DNA of 56,388 nt, counting the filler, from Circinaria calcarea (lineage: Eukaryota): NCBI GenBank assembly GCA_051942165.1. It is 4 parts of 4 records of this genome, joined end to end, with 100 filler letters (N's around TTAATTAATTAA, not from the genome) between each part and the next. Parts side by side here need not be neighbours in the genome. Positions count along the whole stretch, not along the records: positions 1 to 14,051 come from JAVECS010000459.1; 3 more parts are not named here. The stretch is one strand, 5' to 3'. The notes beneath the pieces are model-generated. The model had not been told where the DNA came from, did no database searches, and was given only the letters and a program-made list of their open reading frames with translations. Positions 1 to 42,399 of this stretch are shown here, piece by piece (the stretch's first letter is position 1; each line of letters opens with the position of its first letter). Made by a program: the position numbers and the translations under genes.

Positions 1-99
1 CTTCTTCCTCTGTAATGATTAGTTCTCGCATACACTGCGTATAGCCATCGTATTGCTCGTGCCTCACATTACCACATACCTTAGCTTTAGATACTTTAC

Positions 100-390
100 A
101 AGTAAAGTATTCTACGGCCTTACAAATAACAAAAAAAACTACTTTTTTTATAAAATTTCAAAATCCATAATTATTACAGATATAAAATTCTGAGATTTGA
201 TATAAAAAAACTATATATATTTATCTAAAATCTGAAGGGATTTAAATAAATTTATATATAGAAACGAAGTAGTAATTTATAATATAAAAATAAATCTATT
301 ATGCGACTGACTTCTATTAAGCGACTGACGAGCACTAACTTGTTAGTGCTTTTGAAAAAATTATTTCGCGAAATAATTTTTTCAAAATTT
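100..390. repeat. AT-rich, TpA-rich low-complexity segment at the contig end, possibly a RIP-degraded repeat remnant
   Basis: Abrupt AT enrichment with many TA dinucleotides (e.g. ctatatatatttatctaaaa, tttaaataaatttatatatag) compared with the flanking DNA. No recognisable coding remnant. Confidence 0.4.
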
Positions 391-545
391 ACCCTTGGGC
401 ACGATTATGGGAATGGGCCTTTATCATACGGGTTATTCAGTATCACTACTTCAGCTGAACCGCATAAGCTCCCATCATTGCTTCATTGGGTCAATTCATC
501 ATTGCGCAGAAGAATTCCCATTTAGCTAGCTACGCTACCCTACTT

Positions 546-2002
546 CTACACGTGCACCGCTTGCGATAAAACCGCCGTCCGGAATGTGATTCCCTTGGTC
601 CGCTCGATGACCTGCTGATAGACGGACTGGGGAGGATGGTTCATCACGACCGTACCGTCCCGGTAGTCGATTTTGGCGTCGACGCGGGTGTCGCGGATGA
701 GATTGACGATCCATTTCTCGCCTTCGTCTTGGTTGAGGCCGAGGCGGGTGGAGAGGTCTCTGGGAAGGCTGGGTTAGCTACTTTGCTTGGAGAGTTCAAG
801 GTCGGGGGAAAGATGGGGATGGCAATGAGAGAGAGTGAGGGAGAGAAATGGGCTTACTTGATGTCAATGCGTTGGTGAATCTTGCAATAGCTTTCCGAAA
901 TCAAATGTCTTGCAGCCTCTACGAATGCCTCTGCTGCTGCCACTAGGAAGAAATCCCCTCTTAGCACCTCCTCCGCCTCGCTCAGCTTCTTCTGAGCCTC
1001 TTCGAAGTCGAAATCAATATATAATGCCTTGATGAAATCTGTAATTGGATCATTGTACTCGTAGCCCTCTTGCCTTACTATCCGGACCAGATCCTTCAAC
1101 TGTTTTTGATATTGACCTGTATTCCGGCTGCGGCTGCGGTTCGTGATGACTGCGGCGGCAAGGTAGCGTAAGATCCAGGGGCAGGCGGTTTGAATGGTAT
1201 TGATGAAGGCGGGGGAGAAGAACAGTTCGCAGATGGTATCACGGGCTGGTTCGTAGTTGAAAAAGGGAAAGAGTGTCCAGTGGATGAGCCAGGTTCGATG
1301 TTGGAGTTGCGCGAGCGGGTTATTGAAGAGCTTTGTATCTATTGATTCCTTCACCTTGTTGATTTCGTCCATGACCACCTCCCAGTTTGTGGTTAGGATG
1401 TCCGAGGCCAACTTGCCCCATGACGCGGAGGTAGCTTTGTCGTTGTCGGTGGAGAGGATTCGGAATTGGTCGAGCAGGTGAGCGGCATCAGCGTATTTAC
1501 CGCATTGGTACTGGAAACGGCCGTAATCGTAGAGCATGTCCACCATTTCAATCGTGACGCCGTGTGACTGTTCGAGGAACTTCAGGTTGGCAACTTTGTC
1601 GCTGCGCAGGTTCGTGACCACGCTTTCGTCGTTCAGGAGCTCGTCTATCTGGCTCGTCTCTTCCGAGAAGAGTTGTAACCTCTGCAGGACCTCCTCTCGC
1701 TTCTTGACGAATTCCTCGGGTATCTCGTCGCTATCGTTGATCTCTTGCCAGAGGTTTGCGACATAGTCGGTCATGTTGGTCTGCTTGAGAAGCTCATATT
1801 TCATCTTGGTAATATTGGTGGCATCGTCGCCTTCCTGGCCGGAGAGAAATTCGAGTAGAGGGTAGATCAGGTGTCGATCGAGGTTGGGGATAAGTTTGGG
1901 TAGGAGATCATATTGCTCTGTGATATCTGTAGGGGTTTGCTGTGCTTGTGCCATGTTGCCGTTCAGCATCGCCCCAGCTGAGGTGGGTGTATTGTCCGCC
2001 AT
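546..2002 (-). CDS. INT6: Eukaryotic translation initiation factor 3 subunit E
   Basis: Exons 2002-858 and 759-546 with a GT..AG intron. Motifs [62 protein letters not shown] (PCI domain). Confidence 0.96.
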
Positions 2003-2826
2003 GGTTGCAGGGTGAGTTAATAAAGGTAGAGGTTGTTGAAGTCTGAACGGGCTCAGATATTGGAGTTCGCGAAATGTGTGCCAAGAAGATTGAAATGTTG
2101 AAACGGCTTACGAGCTAACAGTAATACGGAATATATCAACACCCTATCTATTCTACTGCTCTGTACTTGAATGCCTCAATTTACTATTGACACACCTCTA
2201 CCGTACTCTAAATAGTTCCTCCGCTTATTCCAACTTCTCATCCTACCGACTATACGAAATCTGTAACCCTCTGAACTGTCGTGCTAGCATCCCGAACAGT
2301 GCATTCCTTAACTACAACATTCGAGATCTCAAGAAGGACCGGTACTTTGCAGGAGGCGGAAGCAGGGAGAGATAGGGACGTAGCCCAGTGAATCACCGTT
2401 CAAGAAAATCTGGGTCTCGGATGTTTGACTAGGAGATTACGTTGGATGAGACGGGAAGAGTTCAATGGGGCTACTTACGAAACGGGATGCGGGCTGAAAT
2501 GTTGAGTGGAATTGCAGCGCTGGAAATGTCTGACGGAGAGATACTATTCCCTTGGAATAGAATGTGTTAAACCAGTACTATTCGAGAGCAAAGGGGTATC
2601 TCGGATGTCTTGTGTGCTTGCAAAGCTACAAGTAACTACCTTGGTCATAAAATGAGTGTATAAGAGACGATTTCGTCTCGGCGAAAAGCAACCATTCAAT
2701 CCTTGCTGATCGTTCAATCATCGTCCCCCAAACTCAGTTCAAGTAGTAGCCTCGTCCATCCCAACTAAATACCCTCAAGCTAACAATTCTGGCCAAGTCC
2801 CAGCCACTTTAGAGGCCAGCGTGCTG

Positions 2827-3862
2827 CTAATCTTTCAGAAAAGCCTGCTTGAAGTCGTTCGAAGGCCAGCTACTGGGGACCTCCAAAATATTCTTGTCCT
2901 GGGCTCTGCAGCAGGTCCAGCATTCCTGAACAAATATATCAGTCTTTCGTCATATGAACAATAACGCCATATTGCTATTTAACTTACACCAAACTGCCTC
3001 GGGTACTATGGAGTCTGCATTAGTAAAGAATCTCGATTTGAGAGTTACAGTCTTACCCAGGGCTTCTTGCATGTCGGCTTGTCTTCATAGCATATCAACA
3101 GGCAAACTTCACCATCGTCATCTTCCAATTTATGTGCGAGGTTTTTCTTCTCTTCGATGATATTGATTGCATGGGTTGGGCCACTTGACACAAAAAGCAC
3201 TGAAGAAGAATCCCGATGTGTACAGCAGGTCCAGCATTCCTGAATAGATATATTAGCTTTTTCTCATACGAGCAGTTACGAAGTACTAGCATCAACTTAC
3301 ACCGAATTTCTTTGGGTACTATAGAGTCTTCGTTAGTAAAATTTCCAACTTGAGAGATATATTCTTACCGATGGACTCATGCAATCCGGCTCTTCATCCA
3401 TGCATATCCTTAGGCAAGCTTCGCCATCATCCGCTTTATGCACGAGGCTTTTGTTCTCCTCAGGAACACTGACTGCGTGGCTTGGGCTATTTGGTCCAGA
3501 AAGCGTCGGGACGGTAGTACGTTGTCTCGTGCAGCAGGTCCAACATTCCTAAATGGATGTGTTAGCTTTTTTTAGTATACGAACGGTCACACGATATTAG
3601 TGTTGACATACACCGAACTTCTTTGCATACTAGGAAGTTCATATTAGTAAGATCCTCGACTGGAAGAACATATCCTGACCGAGGGTCTCATGCATGCCGG
3701 CTTCTCTAGATAGCATATTGCTAGGCAGATTTCACGATTACCATCTATTTTGTGTGCGAGATCACCTTTCCCTTCGCTTGGTCTCACTGAAACTGTATAC
3801 GAAAGGGGAGAAGCCGTGGCCAAGGTGGCAAGGGTGGCCGCTCCGATCATTGTAAGCTTCAT
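2827..3862 (-). CDS. Secreted cysteine-rich protein (232 aa) with three tandem C-x3-C-x6-C-x11-C-x2-CC modules
   Basis: Exons 3862-3680, 3629-3612, 3548-3369, 3318-3301, 3239-3057, 3005-2988, 2925-2827. All introns are GT..AG and phase 0, with CTAAY/CTGAT branch sites. Signal peptide MKLTMIGAATLATLATA. The spliced frame is open to TAG at 2829-2827. Confidence 0.88.
2905..3760. repeat. Three diverged tandem copies (~310 bp period) of an exon-intron-microexon-intron unit
   Basis: cagcaggtcca(g/a)cattcct recurs at ~2909, ~3223 and ~3532. Intron sequences are also visibly homologous between copies. Confidence 0.9.
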
Positions 3863-6402
3863 CTTGCACTTCGGATATAGTGGCACAGGCCTGTGCTGGG
3901 AAATATTATTTTTGCTATGGGTGTAAGTCGAAACGTCCGAACGGTCGAGCCAGGTTTGGACAGACAGGATGGATTTGATTTATACATCTAGACTCGAGGG
4001 AGCAACTTAGATTCGGAGTGAACCAAATCGATCGGGACACTGCATGTGTGCAAACTATTGGTGTGCAGAAAATTCTCCGCTCCATGCACCTTGTACGTAA
4101 ACTGCCGCCCCTTTGTATCCAGTCAGAGCCTTGAAGCAATCATTGCAGATCATTCATAGGCTACAAGACCTCCGTATTCATGCAGACGGTGCGGGCACGC
4201 GGTTCATCTGCATCTGGAAAATAAGACACGACATGGTACCGAGAGGTAAACCTGGCTGATCGCAGATGATTGGGGCTTTATAACAGTAGGAAATCATTTC
4301 GGAAATGAGTGCCATGTAGAGCTACTGCAACGGAAGTAACTAACTACTAAAGGTGGAAATAGCATGGAAAGATTAATACACAAAAGGTAAGAAATGAAAC
4401 CGGTCTGCAGGATGTAAGCCTAAAGGCAAAAGGACATGCCAATAAATACGGATCGAGATTGACCGAGTTTAGTCATTCGTAATTGCCATTGAGGCGCTGA
4501 CGAAATGTGGTCTCGACCCAGCTACCTAAGCCAAACATGGCGGCCCGTTTTGCAGATTGGATGGCATTACCTTACCTTAGTCCAGCTTGAAGCTTACGCC
4601 CAGCCGTCATTTTTCTCACGAGGTATACGGGTTAAGATTTCATGTCTGGGTCGGGGGAGATCCTGTGATGGAACTGCAAACACTCCCTCGTGCAATTGGC
4701 TTTTCGTGAAGGAGACGAAAAATGGTGAAAAGGTGAAACGTTGGCTCTACTCCATTGGAGCTCTATGGATGCCAATGAATAGTCGGCGTTCCATGGCACC
4801 AGCAGTTCTGAGAGCGTCCTCTCTGTTGACTTGGAGTGCGCGTACGGAGTAGGTACGAAGTACATGTGAATCTTTCGCCTTGATGCGGTAACTCGGAAGC
4901 ACGACCAGTTCGCCAATCTCGATCAGCCGAAGCCCCCCCAACGGGTAGCGCGGAATTAGAATTACTACCGTACGGCTTACATGCACCTTTACCTTTGTAG
5001 GAGGCACTTCAGCAACGAGTCGATTTGGTACCTATACTCCGTACGGCCCAGCCAAGCCATTGCAGGAGTTTCCCATGCATCTCCACACGAGCCTGCAATG
5101 GAGCTTATGCCGGGTCTCGAGGGGGCATAGCTTAACCGTTGCTATCTTAGCTGGCTTGGGGTCTTGGAGCCCTGTATGTGACCATATACACGACTTGTCA
5201 TCATCCCTCTTCAAGGTGCTAAGGGGACGGGGTTTGCGCAGTCTCGAACTAATGATCCAGGCCACGGATGTGAATTGAAACGCCGCCTCGAGTATTAGGC
5301 AGTCGCTCTTCGAAAACATCTCTATAGACGCCAAGTTGGTCCTTCTAATCGTAGTCTTCGGATTGGTCCCCATAGAGATGATCGAAATACTTCCCAGCGA
5401 ATACCTCCTAATATACTACTCAATAATTGACACGGAGTGTCCGTTTTTATTGATTGACGATCGGTCGATCGCGTCAGTCTGACTGAGTCGGTTGCAGCTC
5501 AATGATGCTCAGATGGTAAGCGGACGATGGTTCAAAACTGCCCCGATCTGTTGGGAAGTGCCAATTCAAGTCACCCATGCCAATTCCCTCGCCATATCTC
5601 CCCTACTAGCCGTTATTCGTTCTTTTGTTTCCCTTTTAAGGTCTTAGTCTAATATGTTCTCAAGGAGGAATACTCGCATAGCCATTATATTCTTTTCCAC
5701 TGTAGATCTCGATCTATCTCTTCTCGTGTACGCTTTCATCTGCATATAGGTGGGCTAAGAAAGAGTTCCGATGTAAGGGTGGCTAGGGCGTCCATTGGAA
5801 CCCGTTCTATGATAGGGTAGAAATACAACAAAAAGGCAAGATGCTGTACATACTTTCTGGCACTCCGGCATGCGAGGCCGTGCGGGGAGACTTGGCATCC
5901 CAGACTGACCCTCGTATTTATGCACACCCAAGGGATTTAATATAATCTGAATAGGTAACACTTGGTAGAAGCACCAGCTGGAGGGGTAATATAGAGATAT
6001 TGTCTGTTCCCAGGCTTGATCCTCACTAATCACGCTGGGCATCACATCTTTGTCGACCAGGGTCGTCGAGAGGGTGTAACAATCTTTGGCCGAGAGGAGC
6101 CCAGACATGGCGGGCGTATTACTTATGCACTCACTTTGAAGCTGGACATGGGCGGCGGTGCGTTGAGGAGTCGATGATTGATCTTACTCCGCAACACCGG
6201 TGACCAGATGAGATGCATCACCGATGTGGATTTCCTGCTTATGGGAGGGCTTGCGAGTGAGCTCGGGCCACACTTTTTTCCTTGCCGAGATTTCGCGGCT
6301 AGCGGAATGGCGCTAAGGATAATAGCCGGTGGAAGAAACATCGATACGAACTTATAGCTAGTCGGTACAGAAATCGCAAAATTCTTCAATTCTCAGTAGA
6401 CA

Positions 6403-6965
6403 ATGGCACCCCCATTTCTACTATCTTTCCTGTACCCTCGTCATCCTCCGCGACTGTCTTTGATCCGAAGCTGTCTCCGTACCATATCCACCACTCGCCC
6501 TTTACGGCAAGAAGGTATAGATAGCTAGCTGCCCCCATTCAGCGGACCTTACCTCGTAAAAAAAGAAATAGCAAATCCTGACATCGTATTTTCAGCGTCA
6601 GCCATCACCGCGCCTCCCCAACCCCAAGGCCCCTCACAGGTAACCTCCTCCGTCCTCCCCACCTACCACGTCAACCGTACACCCTCCCAGCAACTCCCCG
6701 TCTACCACCTCGCCAAGCGCGGCGGGAACCTCAAGCAAACGCGGATCCGGAAGATCAGCGGGGATGTCGCGAGTCTGCGGCAAGATCTCCAGCAGGCGCT
6801 GGGCTTGAGGGAAGAGCATATCGTGATTAACCAGTTGACCAAACATATCATTATCAAGGTAAGAAGTAATGGAGCGGAGCTTTCCTTCCTTGGCTTATGA
6901 TTGGGATGATCTAGGGTTGGAAGAAAACGGAGGTAGCCAAGTTTTTGCAGGAGAAACGGTTCTAG
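6403..6965 (+). CDS. IMG2: Mitochondrial large ribosomal subunit protein mL49 (Img2)
   Basis: Three exons. Arg-rich presequence MAPPFLLSFLYPRHPPRLSLIRSCLRTISTTRPLR, then YHVNRTPSQQLPVYHLAKRGGNLKQTRIRKISGD...HIIIK/GWKKTEVAKFLQEKRF*. Not in the ORF track. Confidence 0.9.
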
Positions 6966-7522
6966 AGGGGCCACATAGGATCCACGAATTGTTGCGGGAA
7001 TACCCCCAGGAGGTTGAGATGGTACGGGGCTATCTACAATCGACACCAAGAGGGCCGTCATACGGGGGTGCCGCTTAGCCTCGATTTCCTGGACCGCTTG
7101 GCGCAAATCTAAAGGATGGCCAAAGCTGACATTTGAGTATCGCGGGAAGCCGATATACCAAGATACAAACTTACTGGCCTTTATAAGTGAGCTTGTCGGC
7201 GCCGAATACTTGGCTTCCGTTATCAGAGGGGGTTGCCTCCTAGCATGATATCGGGAAAGCACGGATGGTTGGGTGGAACCGCTTTGGTACTATATTGAGG
7301 CTTCGTCTCTAAAAGAAAATTTGGACAGAAGCCATTGGAATGGGTGAAGGCTTGATCAGTCCGGCTCTTATTCTGTGTAAAAAAATCTAGGTAGCGTCCC
7401 CGAAAGGCTAACATGGTTACCGCTGTTGCTTCATAAACAGGCCGTACTTTGCTATACTCACATCCAAAACGCGCCTCGCTATGCCATGCGGATTTAAAAG
7501 TCACTCATTTGCAGCTGTTTGT

Positions 7523-9860
7523 TCAAGTCTCGAGGACAACTCCTCCTAGTCCCATCCGCATGTTTTCCACCGTCTTGGCCCCTACTCCCTTCAGCCGTCC
7601 CAGCTGTCCAAGGCTGCCAATCACTCTCTCTCCCTTCTCCTCCTCCTCATCATTCTCACCTGTACACAATGCCTCTATGATGACTTCTGCCTTCTTCGCT
7701 CCGACGCCTTTGAGTAATCGGATCTGCTTGATGTCCCTCGTATTAATGATGCCTAGGAGGTGCTTCGTCCGAGGCGTATGGACGATATCTGGTTCCGAAT
7801 GGGATCGTGCGATGGTTAACCTCGTCCTCGAACGTGGTCGATGGATTTCTTGGGCTTTTGGCCGATAGCGGAAGCCATCATGAGAACCGTCTTCCAATTC
7901 ATCTGATGAGATCCTAGAGTCCTTAAACTCAGCCTCGGCTTCGGGGTCGTCACAGACTTTTACTTCCAACCCTCGTCTGAGGACTTCGCTGGGTAGCCTC
8001 GTCAAAGATGGTGGCTGTATATCTGGACTTTCTTGCTTCTGTCGTGTCGATTCCTTCTTCTGCCTGAGCTGCTGTCGTAGCTTCAGAATCTTATTTTCAA
8101 GCTTTGCATTGTCTGGGAAATGCTCCTTGGCAAGTTCATACATCTTCAAGGCACTCGTTGCCTCTCCTCTTACATAATGTTGCTTGGCCATCAAGAGGAA
8201 GGTTAATCCTTCGGCTCTGCTGTCACCATTACCTTCGATCTTCTGCTCCAGCGATTCTAGTCTCTGCTGTACTTCTTCGCTGAGAACAGAGACGGCTGCT
8301 TCCGATGGTTGGTCTAAGGCACGAGACGCAAGGATCTCGCTGACTTTCCTCTCAATGATTTCTTCGATGGTGGCTTTGGACATGGTAGGTTGTGCTCTCC
8401 GTATCGGAGAAGGGCTTGGACGAGCAATCTTAGAGGGCCGTGATGCTGCGGATGTGAAAGTTTCAGAAGGCCGCTTTAACGGCGAGGAGCGGAGATGAGT
8501 CTCAAGTTTGCGTGTTTGGTAGGATGTGTTGGAATGTCGAGGTTTTGACATATCAGAATAGACCGAGAAAGCTTTCAAAGGCTTATCGCCCGTCTTCGAC
8601 TGGTGAGTGGTGGTATTGATAGCGGCATTATGTACGGCGCTTGCCAGTGGTCTCAATGGCTGGCGCTGCATCGAGCACACATTGGAAGATGGCAGTGTTT
8701 TGGAGTAGGTGTCGAGGTTTGGCTCATTTTCGAAGACTTTAATTTCAATCTTTTTGGTTCTATTTGCGAAGTTCAAGGAACTGAGGGTGTCAAGATGGTA
8801 AGATCTAACTGGTGCAAGATTCAGAATCATGATTGTAAGTCCGTTATTCTGACCAAGGGATAGGATTCTCGTCATCTTTGACTCGCGGTAAGGAATCCGG
8901 CTCTGCTTCTTACTGATGGCTTCGACACACTGAGCAAGTACGAACAAACTTTTGTTGATACTGGCGGACTCCACCAGTCTTTCCTTGCCATTACCAGCCC
9001 TCCGGTTATCTTCGGAACCGGCAAGATCAATTGCAGATGCCATACTGACCCTTGTTTCTTCTGCTGTAGAGACGGCAACCTTGACACATAAGATTGCATG
9101 CGATCTAGACGAGTGTGCATTAAGCTACAGTATTTGGTTAGTGTGCGCCTGGACTGACTCCGAGGTATGTCATACCTTCGTCGCACTGGTTGAGCGATTG
9201 ACGTTCGCCTCACTGTATAGCTTCTCGAACTCTTTCAGGCTCTCACATGGCCTCTCGGTCAATCCAACTACCACGGTCTTTCCGCCATTGTCACGCAACT
9301 GCAATCCCGTCATTGTCCTCTTATCCGGAGCCTCAAACAAATCAAAGACCTTGTCATTATATATCTCGTAGTAACTCATAGTAACGTTCACGGTAGTCTC
9401 GTTCTTGGCGTCCTTCTCTATCTTCCTGCTTCTCCTGTAGATGCCGCTGAGTAACCGAGGAATAACACCACGTTCTGCCAACGTCTTACCGCCTCGCATT
9501 GTGTGAGTCTTGCCGGTACCAGTGACCCCGTAAGCGAACAGCGTAATATCGAAGCCATTGAAGAGGTGTTTAACGGTAGGTGACACTGTAGCCGTGATCA
9601 ATCCTACCAATCAACATGTCTCCCAAGCGCAATAACTACCTACCTTCGTTGTCAAAAATATCCTGCTGCGTCGCCTCGGGCCCATAAACACTGTTGAATT
9701 GGAAGTTGAAGTTCTCGTTATCGTTCTTTGGATTGGGAACGCGCACAACAGTCGGTTGACTCGACGGTTCACTCCCTGCACTGACTGCGGTGACTATAAC
9801 ATCCTTATTGAGCTCCGATTGCAAGAGTGGCCGCACGCGCGCCACAACACGTACAGACAT
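7523..9860 (-). CDS. Kinesin motor protein with C-terminal helix-hairpin-helix motifs (kinesin-10/KIF22-like)
   Basis: Exons 9860-9644, 9585-9176, 9124-7523. MSVRVVARVRP, P-loop AYGVTGTGKTHTM, switch motifs NAHSSRSH and DLAGSE, RIPYRESKMTRIL. C-terminal LKGVGAKKA / LKGVGAKTV HhH repeats. Confidence 0.92.
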
Positions 9861-10371
9861 GGTGTCTTTAGCAGTATTCTACAAAACTCAGGTCTCCGCA
9901 AAAAGTAGTTCAGCACATCATGAATTGACGGCGAACATGGGTCGTGAGCTTGGCACTCTCTGGGGAGGAGGTCGGCTCGTTTGTTGTCTCGGTGCAACTT
10001 CGGCTGTTGTCGGGAGAACAGCTGGGATTTTAACCGTCGAGTGCTGCCCTACTCCAAATAACACACCTATATCTTTGTATTAAGTCGCAACTATTTAAGG
10101 AGAGCAGTTGTACTTGGTATAGGCCGAATTGGAGTTGATGTAATAGGTCATAAACAGATACTGCCGCCAAAGCTGTGCATGAGTAGGTTGCTATACTACT
10201 CTGTAGTCACCGATATCACGTCATCCTCTTGGTAATTCAAGCCAGCGTCAGGAGCTCTTTAATACCTTGAAAATGGTAGTTTGAATGCGTTGAGAAATAA
10301 GAAAGATCTTAATCTAAGGATGCATATGTAGGATTGGCAGTTTTGCACCTCGCCGACCAACGTTATCCCAC

Positions 10372-11463
10372 TCATTCATCCGCCATCGGATCAGCTGGCG
10401 GCTCATCAAATTCCACTACCGGCCTGTCCGTAGGCCTTGGGAAATATCCTTTCGAAAAGGAAGGAGCAACGATTCTATGATCCGAGGCGTATTGAAGTAC
10501 GGCGTCAAAATCCCTGCACTGGTGTTGCACGTTGAAATTTGGGTGAGGAGCAAAATGACCTTTGATCCAGTTATAGGTGATGATGTTCGTATCGGCATCA
10601 CATATTAGCTTCTGGCGGAGGATATCTGTGCAGTGGTCTGTAGGATTCGTCAGTGAGCTTGAACCCCAGATAGCCAGTACTTTTGGTCGGAATTTACCAA
10701 TGTGTTTATGCCATGCTTCAGGATGCTCCCTAGAGTAGCTAGATGATGCGGTATAGTAATCTGGATAAGTTACCTCCCAGAGACTTTGCTACAATCTAAC
10801 TGTTAGCTAGGTTGAAACTTTCCGGGATTCTGTGTGAAGTTACCCACCAGGCAATGGATCTGGTGAATGGTTTCGAATAAAGCCAAACGACCGCCACCCA
10901 ATTCAAGGGGCACCTTCACCGCATGCTTCGACGTATTCAGTTGCTGGAGAACCTCTTCTGTGATGCTCATAGCACCGACTATTAAATCCATGTTAGCACT
11001 GTTTAAACTCCAAAAGCAGATCTCCATACGATGTGTTAAGCTATTCCAAGCCTTATCAACTGTAGGTGAAGGCGGCCCCTTAAAATTTGAGGACTGATCA
11101 AAAGTCCCGTTGAACCTCACGTTTCTGTAGGTATCGGGAACTGAGCCCATAATCAGGGCTAGACATGGCAAGTAGTTAGCGTGCTTAGCAGTACCTACGA
11201 TCTTATATATAACTTTACTCACACCATTTTGTATGCTGTGTTAAGCAGTCTTGCGGGATCGATTTCTTGAGAATAAAGGTAGATATCAGCATTGCCCCAG
11301 AGATCGAGAATAATACAACGTGTATTATCCAGGGTATTGCTTTTCTGAACAAGTTCGATGCCACTTGATGCTGATTTTGTAGGTCCCCCGTATGTCCTAG
11401 TAGAGATTCTTCTCCATCTTCTGTGTTCTTCAAACATGCCGTCGAGAACGCTTCATATTCCAT
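10372..11463 (-). CDS. DUF3328 / UstYa-family oxidase (285 aa), single N-terminal TM helix
   Basis: Exons 11463-11223, 11158-11030, 10978-10848, 10788-10698, 10637-10372. TM segment WIIHVVLFSISGAMLI, F-x-GPPSPTVDKAW, two HxxHC motifs (HQIHC, HIDHC), then ILRQKLMCDADT and PNFNVQHQCRDFD. Confidence 0.92.
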
Positions 11464-12372
11464 AATGCAGAACTTATCTATACAGTCAGATCTTAAACAC
11501 GGTTCGGGCCGGGTATGGTCAATAAATGAACTTCTATGCCGGGCGCATCAAGCTGGGAAAGCGGTCGGATAGGCGACGGCCGTATCTTCCTGTTCCTATC
11601 ATGCAACGAAGAAAGATATTCTGACGCCAACTCTTTCATGTCTGATAGGAATCTAAAACCCACCCATGCCACACTGACCATCCTAAATGGATGGAATATC
11701 TTGGCTAGAACGGTGAGCAAGCTGAGTGGGGTGGAAGATCTGGAATCATTTCCGATGCCTGGTCCATGGTGGTTGCATATAGACTTTGGTATCCATGATA
11801 GACGGTCTAACAATCCCTGCTACATCCTTTTCTGTTGATCTTTCCCGGAAACAGAGGCTCTGCATGACGCGCAACACTGTATTTGGGTAAGGCAAGAGGG
11901 ACGAAGAAGGCAAGATGGGCATCAAACGGTCTCGGTGCAAAGGATTTGCATTCTTTCATGTAAGAGTATGTGAGAGGGAGGCACAGAATCATGGAGTACC
12001 AGTCAGAATAGAATCAAAGAACCGGACGAGGCCTTGAAAAGGGAGTCAAAAGCGAGACATGACAAGACACAGGCATTAAGATGCAAAAACCACAAGCTAT
12101 CTCGACAGAATGGGAACAGCAGCCTAACGGGACTAGCAGGCCCTTAAGCTGTTATTGTGGGCACGGCTACGCTAATGCAGGCAACCCATTGTTAGTCCTA
12201 TCTCTCTTGCATTGCCAAGTGGCTTTGACGAGTGATTCTCCTGTTACCGATTTTACTTGAAAAGCAAACGGAACCTGCTTGTTTTCAACTCTTTCATTGA
12301 CCGTGATCCTTCTCTGCAAAGACATACCTTTTCCAATCCCAGTACTCGATTTCTAGTCCGCGAGCCACTAAG

Positions 12373-12647
12373 ATGCGGCTCGCCATCCTCTTCCTCGAGC
12401 TTGTCGCGGTACTGCCCCTTGTCTTGGGAGCTCCGATAGCACCTAAAAGTACCGGCTTATTGCTTGCAGCACGAATGAAGCTTATATTTGTATAGGTTCG
12501 GACTCTATCAACAGCATGATCTTTTACTACAATCAGGATCTAATCGAGCGTGGCAAGGAGGCATCGGAGGGACTCGCTAAACGTGTGGATATCGACAGCA
12601 TGGTCCTCCGCTACGACGAAGAGGTGATTGAACCAGGCAAGGAGTAG
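12373..12647 (+). CDS. Putative RiPP precursor / Kex2-processed repeat peptide (75 aa)
   Basis: Exons 12373-12448 and 12496-12647 with a 47-nt GT..AG intron. MRLAILFLELVAVLPLVLG-APIAPKSSD-SINSMIFYYNQDLIERGKE-ASEGLAKR-V-DIDSMVLRYDEEVIEPGKE*. Signal peptide, KR site and 84-nt internal repeat. Divergent from the DUF3328 gene. Confidence 0.75.
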
Positions 12648-13551
12648 TTGGAGGGACTCAGTACACGCGTGGAGACCGAAAGCATCATCTCCATTTGATG
12701 TGCTAGAAGGGCTCAAAGATGGTAGACAGAGCACAATCTGGAGCGGTATCAAGTCATGATGTTTTTCCCGAGTTTCAACGGAACGTAACGAACTAACGTG
12801 GGGCAAGAAGTCGACGGGGTTCTGTTAGATGGCTTTGGTCCGTTAGTTCAGAATAAACCAAAAAAAGATGCGTTAGGATGCCTTCAACTGCGCTGTGCCT
12901 CCTCTATGCATGTAGTTGACTATTGAATGGAAATCGATTGTGATGGTCTGCGAATGCGGGAAGTAAGCACTCTGTAGCGTTGTGGCTCTCCTAATTGGCT
13001 TTAGCCTGGGAGTGAACGGCGCATCCCCGCATATGACTTGCATTAGATCAAGGCACATTTTGGCCTCGCAATGGCAACGGGGAAGATCACGAACTCGAAT
13101 GTGGCAGGTGTCACCACGCGGATACTACGTTACGCGGGAATGGTTCTGATTGTGGTTACCGATGATGCGGATACACCAGACTTTTTGCCAGATCCGAGTT
13201 TCATCCACACGATTTCGGGTGGGCCTGGGCGACCCATAACAAAATGTCTCCTTATTTGTGGGGAAGGGGGGAAAAATCGACCACGGTTGACATCATCGAT
13301 AAAGCAAAGTTGCTCGCGATCAGATATCTCTGTGCCTAGGCTTACTTACGATACTGTACCGAGTGCCAGCATCAGATATCTCTGCCTCGGGTGTCAATCC
13401 CAGCTTTCTTTCCAAATGTAATCGGCTACGTTTGAAAGTAAAAATCCGAGCTAGATATATTCCACTTTCTCCGAAAAGCTCTCAAGCAGTTTGGTAGAGA
13501 AGACTAGAGTCTTGCTGTTTGAAGATATACCAAGAGTTTGAGATTTTGATA

Positions 13552-14051
13552 ATGGATCCAGAAGGCGAGAAAACCTCACGACTTTCTCAGGTCAACAATT
13601 CTCACGATGCAGCAACGATCGAGAAGGGTGTAACAGCTGAAGCGTGCAGTACGGCAGAAAACGAGGTTACCACGCCAGCTGTATTCGACTCAGTACCCGT
13701 CAGGAAACTCCCCTTAATATCAAACAGTCCTCAACGCGTGAAAGTTATCCAACTGCTTGGAGCTCTAGCTGCTATCGGGGCCGGAACAGCGAGGCCGCTG
13801 ATGACTCTTGTTTTTGGAGGATTAGTCAACAAATTCAACAGCTCTGGTGATCCTGTTGCGCTGAAAAACCTTATCGATCACGAAGTCCTGTTCCTTGTAT
13901 ATCTCTTTGTCGGTCAATGGGTTCTCGTTTGCAGCTATGGCATTTTCTTCTCCATCTCCGCCATGCGCTTTTCAACCAAACTTAGAGCCGCCTATCTACG
14001 TGCTGCAATATCACAGGACTTCAGGGACATAAGCCAAGGCGAAGTGGCCAA
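13552..14051 (+). CDS. ABC transporter, ABCB/MDR type (5' part only, cut by contig end)
   Basis: First TM-domain pattern GALAAIGAGTARPLMTLVFGGLVNKF...LFLVYLFVGQWVL...KLRAAYLRAAISQD. Confidence 0.85.
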
Positions 14052-14151
14052 NNNNNNNNNNNNNNNNNNNNNNNNNNNNNNNNNNNNNNNNNNNNTTAAT
14101 TAATTAANNNNNNNNNNNNNNNNNNNNNNNNNNNNNNNNNNNNNNNNNNNN
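14052..14151. other. Artificial contig-joining linker (N44-TTAATTAATTAA-N44)
   Basis: Palindromic six-frame stop spacer inside Ns. Genes on both sides are truncated. Confidence 0.97.
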
Positions 14152-28193: not shown

Positions 28194-28293
28194 NNNNNNN
28201 NNNNNNNNNNNNNNNNNNNNNNNNNNNNNNNNNNNNNTTAATTAATTAANNNNNNNNNNNNNNNNNNNNNNNNNNNNNNNNNNNNNNNNNNNN
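28194..28293. other. Artificial contig-joining linker
   Basis: Identical N44-TTAATTAATTAA-N44. Confidence 0.97.
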
Positions 28294-42299: not shown

Positions 42300-42399
42300 N
42301 NNNNNNNNNNNNNNNNNNNNNNNNNNNNNNNNNNNNNNNNNNNTTAATTAATTAANNNNNNNNNNNNNNNNNNNNNNNNNNNNNNNNNNNNNNNNNNNN
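42300..42399. other. Artificial contig-joining linker
   Basis: Identical N44-TTAATTAATTAA-N44. Confidence 0.97.

Follow-up and report, generated by a model that had tools for sequence, protein, structure and literature searches.

The closest described systems to the locus considered in this study are the fungal dikaritin pathways, in which DUF3328 (UstYa) proteins are indispensable for cyclizing the tyrosine-containing cores of three peptides that are made by the ribosome and modified after translation (RiPPs), namely ustiloxin, phomopsin, and asperipin-2a (PMC7329392; PMC12048977). Repeats containing Tyr are enriched beside DUF3328 genes, and Tyr is required for cyclization in the three characterized pathways (PMC7329392). 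Two HxxHC motifs are the signature taken for RiPP-related members of the UstY proteins, and the original dikaritin definition of Ding et al. includes tyrosinase and methyltransferase genes, both of which are dropped in later definitions (PMC12048977). Among the Kex2-processed repeat proteins (KEPs) counted in one survey, 1758 lay beside DUF3328 genes, on average 3.09 genes away; the criterion for a KEP was an annotated protein with a signal peptide and at least three tandem repeats of at least 8 amino acids (aa) between KR, KK, RK, or RR (Umemura, 2020, PMC7329392). Here, we analyze a stretch of 56,388 nucleotides of the Circinaria calcarea assembly GCA_051942165.1 (hereafter the window, meaning this whole stretch) and, in particular, a candidate cluster at the right-hand end of its first contig (contig 1, positions 1–14051), which consists of a UstYa/DUF3328 oxidase gene, a small putative precursor-peptide gene, and the 5′ part of an ATP-binding cassette (ABC) transporter gene.

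We consider it likely, with a probability of roughly 0.7, that the window locus is a genuine precursor–oxidase pair, that is, a compact UstYa-dependent, dikaritin-like RiPP locus belonging to a conserved gene-pair family. The evidence for this is the gene models, the Pfam matches, and the tandem repeat, together with the recurrence of the same pair in related loci. The working state of the window's own copy is less certain than the pair itself, owing to the weak signals of the single intron predicted in the precursor gene (12449–12495).

The oxidase gene and its small divergent neighbor

An earlier note on this DNA had proposed a 285-aa DUF3328 protein with both HxxHC motifs, encoded head-to-head and about 910 bp away from a tiny two-exon gene with a KR site and two Tyr-containing repeats, followed about 900 bp further on by an ABCB transporter. 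All of these features were recovered in the present analysis, the transporter as the 5′ part of a putative ABCB-like gene (Table 1). The UstYa family PF11807 (Pfam cut-off, 25 bits) was matched in two minus-strand stop-to-stop frames, at 73.2 bits on 10372–10788, where the last two exons are read through, and at 36.9 bits on 10803–11240, which holds the middle exons. The four introns of the oxidase gene (64, 51, 59, and 60 nt) are all GT-AG, with the donors GTGAGT, GTATGG, GTGGGT, and GTAAAT in order, and with branch sites GCTAAC in introns 1–3 and CTGAC in intron 4. The two HxxHC motifs of the spliced model, HQIHC and HIDHC, are both aligned with those of three database homologs (P0001–P0003). 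HIDHC is formed only once the in-frame 60-nt intron 10697–10638 is spliced out, and this splice is backed by the three homologs, with identical sequence across the junction. The protein contains a single long hydrophobic stretch at about residues 41–64 (read by eye), which fits a membrane-anchored enzyme. The nearest named protein is the hypothetical protein KAF2182968.1 of Zopfia rhizophila CBS 207.26 (P0001), which is 51% identical over the last two exons and aligns with the window protein from end to end, including a C-terminal acidic/Pro motif, though it is itself uncharacterized.

The region between the two start codons is presumed to act as a shared promoter, and the head-to-head layout found in the window is also that of the relatives described below. 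Exon 1 of the putative precursor gene encodes 25 residues, namely Met-Arg, about 16 mostly hydrophobic residues, and then a stretch of small residues and Pro (assessed by eye). Removal of the intron brings exon 1 into phase with the frame of two similar units, and it is the sole splice in the scanned range that retains both cores. In each unit, Tyr comes after two hydrophobic residues and a basic or aromatic one and is followed by two variable positions and then an acidic one, and the one KR of the precursor is positioned between the two units. At the DNA level, the 84-nt units are 70% identical (from a repeat search at 84-nt spacing), and unit 2 extends through the stop codon. After the stop there is a decayed third unit, from 12674 to about 12700.

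Recurrence of the gene pair in related loci

A phmmer search with precursor exon 2, exhaustive over 1.84 billion representatives, gave exactly two matches at E ≤ 0.001, the proteins P0004 (256 aa) and P0005, both at about 8e-9. Each contains two to three units of the same type as the window, and both come from short assemblies. When a profile of the trimmed precursor alignment was searched against proteins of 26–154 aa, only P0005 was found among the eight candidates. The precursor family thus exists but is nearly missing among predicted proteins, which fits genes that are so small and have escaped annotation. Scanning metagenomes with the alignment of the precursors gave 319 pattern matches, 0 of them confirmed; the scan with an alignment of the C-terminal exon of UstYa and three homologs gave 21 loci (L001–L021), with 43–77% identity to the window.

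In these loci, the small gene was sought with profiles and with a pattern. The first hidden Markov model (HMM) was built from the window, P0004, and P0005 only, and was run on 9,938 six-frame pieces from the 21 loci and contig 1. It matched L020 (E 2e-6), L012, L013, and L014 (2e-4), and L001 and L002 (4e-4), and more weakly L009, L003, and L004; the matches lie immediately upstream of the UstYa gene and on the opposite strand, and one additional weak match in L005 was off-target. A residue-class regular expression gave 33 matches in 290,993 bases, 27 of which were on-target (two being the window's own) and six elsewhere; it added L005 and L006, and a second HMM, built from its hits, added L007, which was confirmed by a listing of open reading frames (ORFs). 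Because the regular expression and the second HMM fix the Tyr and the acidic +3 residue by construction, it is the first HMM that provides independent evidence. In all, the small gene is present and divergently transcribed in 12 of the 21 loci, corresponding to nine distinct lineages once L001 and L002, which are the same, and the identical L012, L013, and L014 are collapsed. In six of the nine loci without it (L008, L010, L011, L015, L016, and L021) the UstYa gene is too near the contig end to have upstream DNA. The other three, L017–L019, have upstream DNA with no small-gene match, and together with L016 they form a separate long branch of the UstYa tree (length 1.29, support 100/100). The earlier note had set as its own test whether a precursor-like gene stands beside orthologous DUF3328 genes, and the homologous, head-to-head small gene of these 12 loci answers it in the affirmative.

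This recurrence of the small gene beside UstYa relatives is beyond chance. In favor of a chance open frame in the promoter region, with only a coincidental likeness to a precursor, the ORF is short, matched no Pfam family, and had no usable match in the ESM Atlas. Nevertheless, we regard this explanation as very remote in view of the relatives at E of about 8e-9, the 12 of 21 loci with the gene beside UstYa against six off-target motif matches in 291 kb, and the conserved exon–intron build; moreover, the related loci are not assembly duplicates of one organism, as their UstYa identities range from 48 to 77%. At the DNA level, only the 3′ half of the UstYa gene and core 2 align between the window (9900–14051) and L002, core 2 (12597–12643) at 79% over 47 nt (E 1e-5). 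Among eight further pairs of loci, islands of aligned DNA fell on the precursor gene in four, an island was found elsewhere only in one, and there was no alignment in three.

The build of the small gene is shared by the nine lineages and the window. Exon 1 is confined to a signal-peptide-like segment with a small-residue- or Pro-rich end, an intron of 41–59 nt lies in the same place, and exon 2 carries the cores and stops a few residues past the last one. The precursors encoded are 50–136 aa long, and in 10 lineages, the window included, the gene is divergent from UstYa at a distance of 0.7–0.9 kb. Since the family's usual C-terminus is where the window stop falls inside unit 2, this stop is not taken as decay; decay as the main explanation of the stop was set aside because the relatives end at the same place. 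The number of cores is one in L001/2, L006, L007, and L009, two in L003, L020, and the window, three in L004 and L005, and four in L012–14. The reading frame of the three-core precursor of L004 (L004:203–447, minus strand) shifts between units 1 and 2; a sequencing error might explain this, as might a further intron or a genuine frameshift. In L003, as in the window, a decayed unit follows the precursor stop (L003:8036–7986, minus strand), and the decayed units of these two loci suggest that the repeat number shifts through tandem duplication and loss at the 3′ end.

The core pattern is approximately hydrophobic-hydrophobic-[K/R/H/Y/A]-Tyr-x-x-Asp, and, as assessed by eye, conservation stretches from about position −3 relative to the Tyr as far as about +6. 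The type of core follows the clades of the UstYa tree, the backbone of which is weakly supported (47/85). The window and L001/2 share a core type led by Ser-Met; L003–5 share another, with KR straight after the core; L006, L007, and L009 have a single Cys-flanked core, and L012–14 have four. Dibasic sites are found only in the window and L003–5. Two proposals of the earlier note are therefore to be narrowed: the heptapeptides SMIFYYN and SMVLRYD stand as Tyr cores but not in their length, and a Kex2-processed repeat precursor is compatible with the KR of the window and L003–L005 but does not extend to the whole family. One of the UstYa homologs, P0002, is a full-length protein of 294 aa that is sister to the L020 UstYa in the tree (support 100/98). 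Unlike the L020 gene, which is broken into several tblastn segments, it is uninterrupted on an assembly contig of 995 bases; this contig probably represents a transcript from which the introns have been removed, in which case the clade would be expressed somewhere.

Taken as a pathway, the pair would work as follows. Firstly, the 75-aa precursor would enter the endoplasmic reticulum (ER) by way of its predicted signal peptide. Secondly, the membrane-anchored UstYa, with its two HxxHC motifs presumably facing the lumen, would oxidize each core at its invariant Tyr; the likeliest reaction, if ustiloxin, phomopsin, and asperipin-2a are taken as analogs, would be a cross-link from Tyr to a neighboring side chain. 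Kex2 might then cleave after the single KR between the units, and other peptidases might trim the ends. Export of the product by the adjoining ABC transporter is possible and is the weakest link of the scheme.

Neighboring genes and the state of the window copy

The genes around the pair were identified by Pfam scans of ORFs of at least 95 aa in seven 20-kb loci (L002, L003, L005, L007, L012, L019, and L020) and by tblastn over all 21 loci; counts refer to the 13 lineages outside the L016–19 clade and L021. In the window, the ABC gene starts 905 bp past the precursor stop, and the piece scored 33.1 bits with PF00664 (ABC_membrane; cut-off, 28). Judged from its first 166 codons, it appears to be of the ABCB-like type in which a transmembrane domain (TMD) comes first; its nucleotide-binding domains (NBDs) would lie beyond the contig end. 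Full (TMD-NBD)x2 ABC genes are located less than 4 kb from UstYa in L003, L004, and L020, and a fragment in L005. The order TMD-NBD-TMD-NBD was seen in those of L003 and L020, and, over 44 aa, the part present in the window shares 41% identity with the L020 protein. The association of an ABC gene with the pair is therefore recurrent, not general, and the precursor–UstYa pair is the constant part of the family; the transporter that the earlier note had counted as part of the cluster is a possible member of it.

The commonest third gene, seen beside UstYa in 10 of these 13 lineages (the five loci of Table 1 and further L008–L011 and L015 among them), encodes a membrane protein with the "fungal rhodopsin domain" PF20684 and is convergent except in L011; none was found in L020, and L004 and L006 were not assessable. 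After the PF20684 gene, a large gene (about 740–815 codons) for a protein like a flavin-containing monooxygenase (FMO) or pyridine-nucleotide oxidoreductase follows in L001/2, L007, and L012–14, and it may encode a tailoring enzyme. No match to an FMO-like gene was found anywhere in the window. L002, the closest relative of the window, has a single-core precursor, and 1–6 kb from it lie a gene for a serine carboxypeptidase S10 (L002:2591–4156, minus strand) and a sedolisin-type gene with a Pro-kumamolisin activation domain (L002:5474–7142, plus strand); they could be processing enzymes or chance neighbors.

The window consists of four concatenated contigs of 14051, 14042, 14006, and 13989 bases. 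As the contigs are sorted by decreasing size, genes on separate contigs of the window do not share a genomic neighborhood. The candidate cluster is limited on the left by housekeeping genes, and its right side is cut by the assembly. Contigs 2–4 gave no match to UstYa, ABC, PF20684, or FMO. Elsewhere on contig 1, a stop-to-stop frame of 111 codons on the minus strand (3644–3979), without a Pfam match, has, after an internal Met, a hydrophobic stretch rich in Ala, Thr, and Leu, and several Cys; a small secreted protein may be its product.

Table 1. Positions of the features discussed, along the window or, where a locus is named, along that related locus
Feature	Position	Strand	Details
eIF3 subunit e gene	854-2107	minus	left part of contig 1
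Mitochondrial ribosomal protein Img2 gene	6529-6900	plus	contig 1
Kinesin gene	7523-9878	minus	neighbor at the 3′ side of UstYa
UstYa/DUF3328 oxidase gene	10372-11463	minus	5 exons (11463-11223, 11158-11030, 10978-10848, 10788-10698, 10637-10372); 285-aa product
Divergent intergenic region	11464-12372		909 bp between the two ATGs
Putative precursor-peptide gene	12373-12647	plus	2 exons, 75 aa; exon 1 12373-12448; intron 12449-12495 (47 nt, donor GTACCG); exon 2 12496-12647; stop TAG 12645-12647
Tandem repeat units	12506-12589 and 12590-12673	plus	84 nt (28 codons) each, one Tyr core per unit
ABC transporter gene, 5′ part	13552-14051	plus	166 codons; PF00664; cut by the contig end
Joints between contigs	14052-14151, 28194-28293, 42300-42399		each 44 N + TTAATTAATTAA + 44 N
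PF20684 genes	L002:10612-11752, L003:15739-16808, L005:11812-12871, L007:10493-11618, L012:10523-11830	minus	
FMO-like genes	L002:12382-14717, L007:12447-14891, L012:12535-14751	plus	

Several points weigh against the reading of the window locus as a dikaritin-like precursor–oxidase pair. In the window itself, the two units have only 12 of 27 residues in common, the donor of the intron 12449–12495 (GTACCG) is weak and a CTRAY branch site is lacking there, the unspliced ORF is 40 aa long and lacks a core, and the precursor has a single dibasic site. Pfam scans found no tyrosinase and no methyltransferase on contig 1, which stops inside the ABC gene, and there was no PF20684 match in the whole 56-kb window. 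Among the relatives, KR is missing from L001/2, L006, L007, L009, L012–14, L020, P0004, and P0005, so that Kex2 processing is no family feature; an ABC gene stands beside the pair in only three related lineages, plus the L005 fragment, of 13; and the invariance of the Tyr and of the acidic +3 residue is partly inherent in the regular expression. Finally, UstYa homologs act outside RiPP pathways too, performing hydroxylation, chlorination, and transacylation in cyclochlorotine biosynthesis (PMC12048977).

It might be argued that the family is real and that the copy in the window is decaying or silent, with a precursor that is ill-spliced or truncated, with PF20684 lost, and with a UstYa that is kept for a different function or is itself being lost. 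The tandem repeat does run past the precursor stop and is followed by the decayed third unit; however, precursors of the family normally stop directly behind their last core, and L003 too has a decayed unit after its stop. Likewise, the window is without a PF20684 or FMO-like gene and has the kinesin gene at the 3′ side of UstYa, but L020 also lacks PF20684 and carries an ABC gene instead, and the contig stops 1.4 kb after the precursor, so partners may lie off the contig. The weak donor and the lack of a canonical branch site in the precursor intron have to be set against a UstYa gene whose frame and all four introns are intact and against core 2, whose DNA is conserved relative to L002 where the flanking DNA is not alignable. 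On balance, we regard a decaying or silent copy as unlikely.

Another explanation is that the product of the small gene is secreted but is no substrate of UstYa, for instance a signal peptide that stays unmodified, an effector, or a partner protein, and that the oxidase acts elsewhere. The action of UstYa homologs on non-ribosomal products (PMC12048977) agrees with it, as does the lack of conservation of the dibasic processing sites, and the modification itself is a predicted one. However, no nonribosomal peptide synthetase (NRPS) or polyketide synthase (PKS) was found on contig 1 or among the Pfam matches of the seven loci scanned, the divergent spacing is kept in 10 lineages and the core type co-varies with the UstYa clade, and the invariant Tyr matches the Tyr dependence of DUF3328 cyclization (PMC7329392). 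We therefore consider a non-substrate role quite improbable, and the precursor–oxidase pair remains the preferred reading.

Significance and comparison with known systems

UstYa-type oxidases are common in fungal genomes, and their peptide substrate is often not identified. The precursor described here was unannotated and was found by its sequence and its conserved position. As regards the window, the result is a modest one, namely one further candidate RiPP locus, truncated by the assembly, within a well-populated known class. The chief value is at the family level, in short and sometimes single-core precursors paired with a dedicated UstYa clade. This provides a defined core motif and a gene model with which the neighborhoods of further UstYa genes can be searched, a pair of genes small enough for direct expression so as to learn how this UstYa clade acts on a Tyr-containing peptide, and PF20684 as a candidate third partner.

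A wider reading is possible but doubtful, namely that these loci represent a widespread, unrecognized module composed of a precursor with one to four cores, a dedicated UstYa, and mostly a PF20684 seven-helix protein, which would make a Tyr-centered peptide with a chemistry unlike the Tyr-Ile ether of the dikaritins. The acidic +3 residue and the hydrophobic pairs flanking the Tyr point to another kind of cross-link or of recognition. Since the PF20684 proteins presumably resemble PTH11-type receptors, the module could be a secreted peptide signal beside its own receptor or immunity protein, not a toxin pathway. On this wider reading, single-core, non-dibasic precursors would account for the failure of repeat-based mining to turn up a precursor beside many UstY genes. 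That the earlier note did not recognize the cores from known compounds agrees with our searches: the six core strings were absent from the three supplementary files of PMC7329392 that were searched, and in the literature outside subscription journals full-text searches gave no relevant match to the core motif or strings, and DUF3328, dikaritin, and UstYa searches matched no described class to the gene-pair family.

The asperipin-2a pathway of Aspergillus flavus (ust-RiPS/dikaritin) has a compact cluster, as does the window, and this cluster also contains a transporter. Its precursor, however, carries many short repeats, typically of 8 aa, between Kex2 sites (PMC7329392), in contrast to the two 28-aa units and one KR found here. 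Judged by its predicted proteins, the window locus is a dikaritin locus in the current sense, with a UstYa that contains two HxxHC motifs and an adjoining precursor with repeated Tyr cores; in the original sense of Ding et al. it is not one on contig 1, given the two missing enzyme genes and a contig that ends within the ABC gene.

Ustiloxin and phomopsin are like the window in having a UstYa-family oxidase with HxxHC, an ER-targeted precursor (predicted in the window), and a Tyr-centered core. The ustiloxin cluster contains FMO-like genes, and the FMO-like genes near the pair in L001/2, L007, and L012–14 are a likeness to it. The differences lie in the cores, which are YAIG, YVIG, or YVIP in ustiloxin and phomopsin and bear a Tyr-Ile ether link for which a tyrosinase is required as well, and in the number of DUF3328 genes, which is two to five in those clusters (PMC7329392) against one UstYa gene in the window. 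Moreover, the window core follows another pattern, with conserved residues on both sides of the Tyr.

The KEPs resemble the window precursor, which is predicted to be secreted, in being small, secreted, repeat-bearing proteins that adjoin a DUF3328 gene. With two units and one KR, the window precursor falls outside the published KEP criterion, and from its predicted processing it would be KEP-like in its working; several of its relatives differ further from KEPs in being single-core and without a dibasic site. A last comparison is with the UstY clusters of Lecanoromycetes from a 2025 survey of lichen fungi, in which two HxxHC motifs are present but no repeated core was recognized; its authors suggest that the precursor lies at another site or that there is "a single core peptide" (PMC12048977). 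In the window, by comparison, a candidate precursor is identified beside the oxidase, and its family has single-core members in L001/2, L006, L007, and L009.

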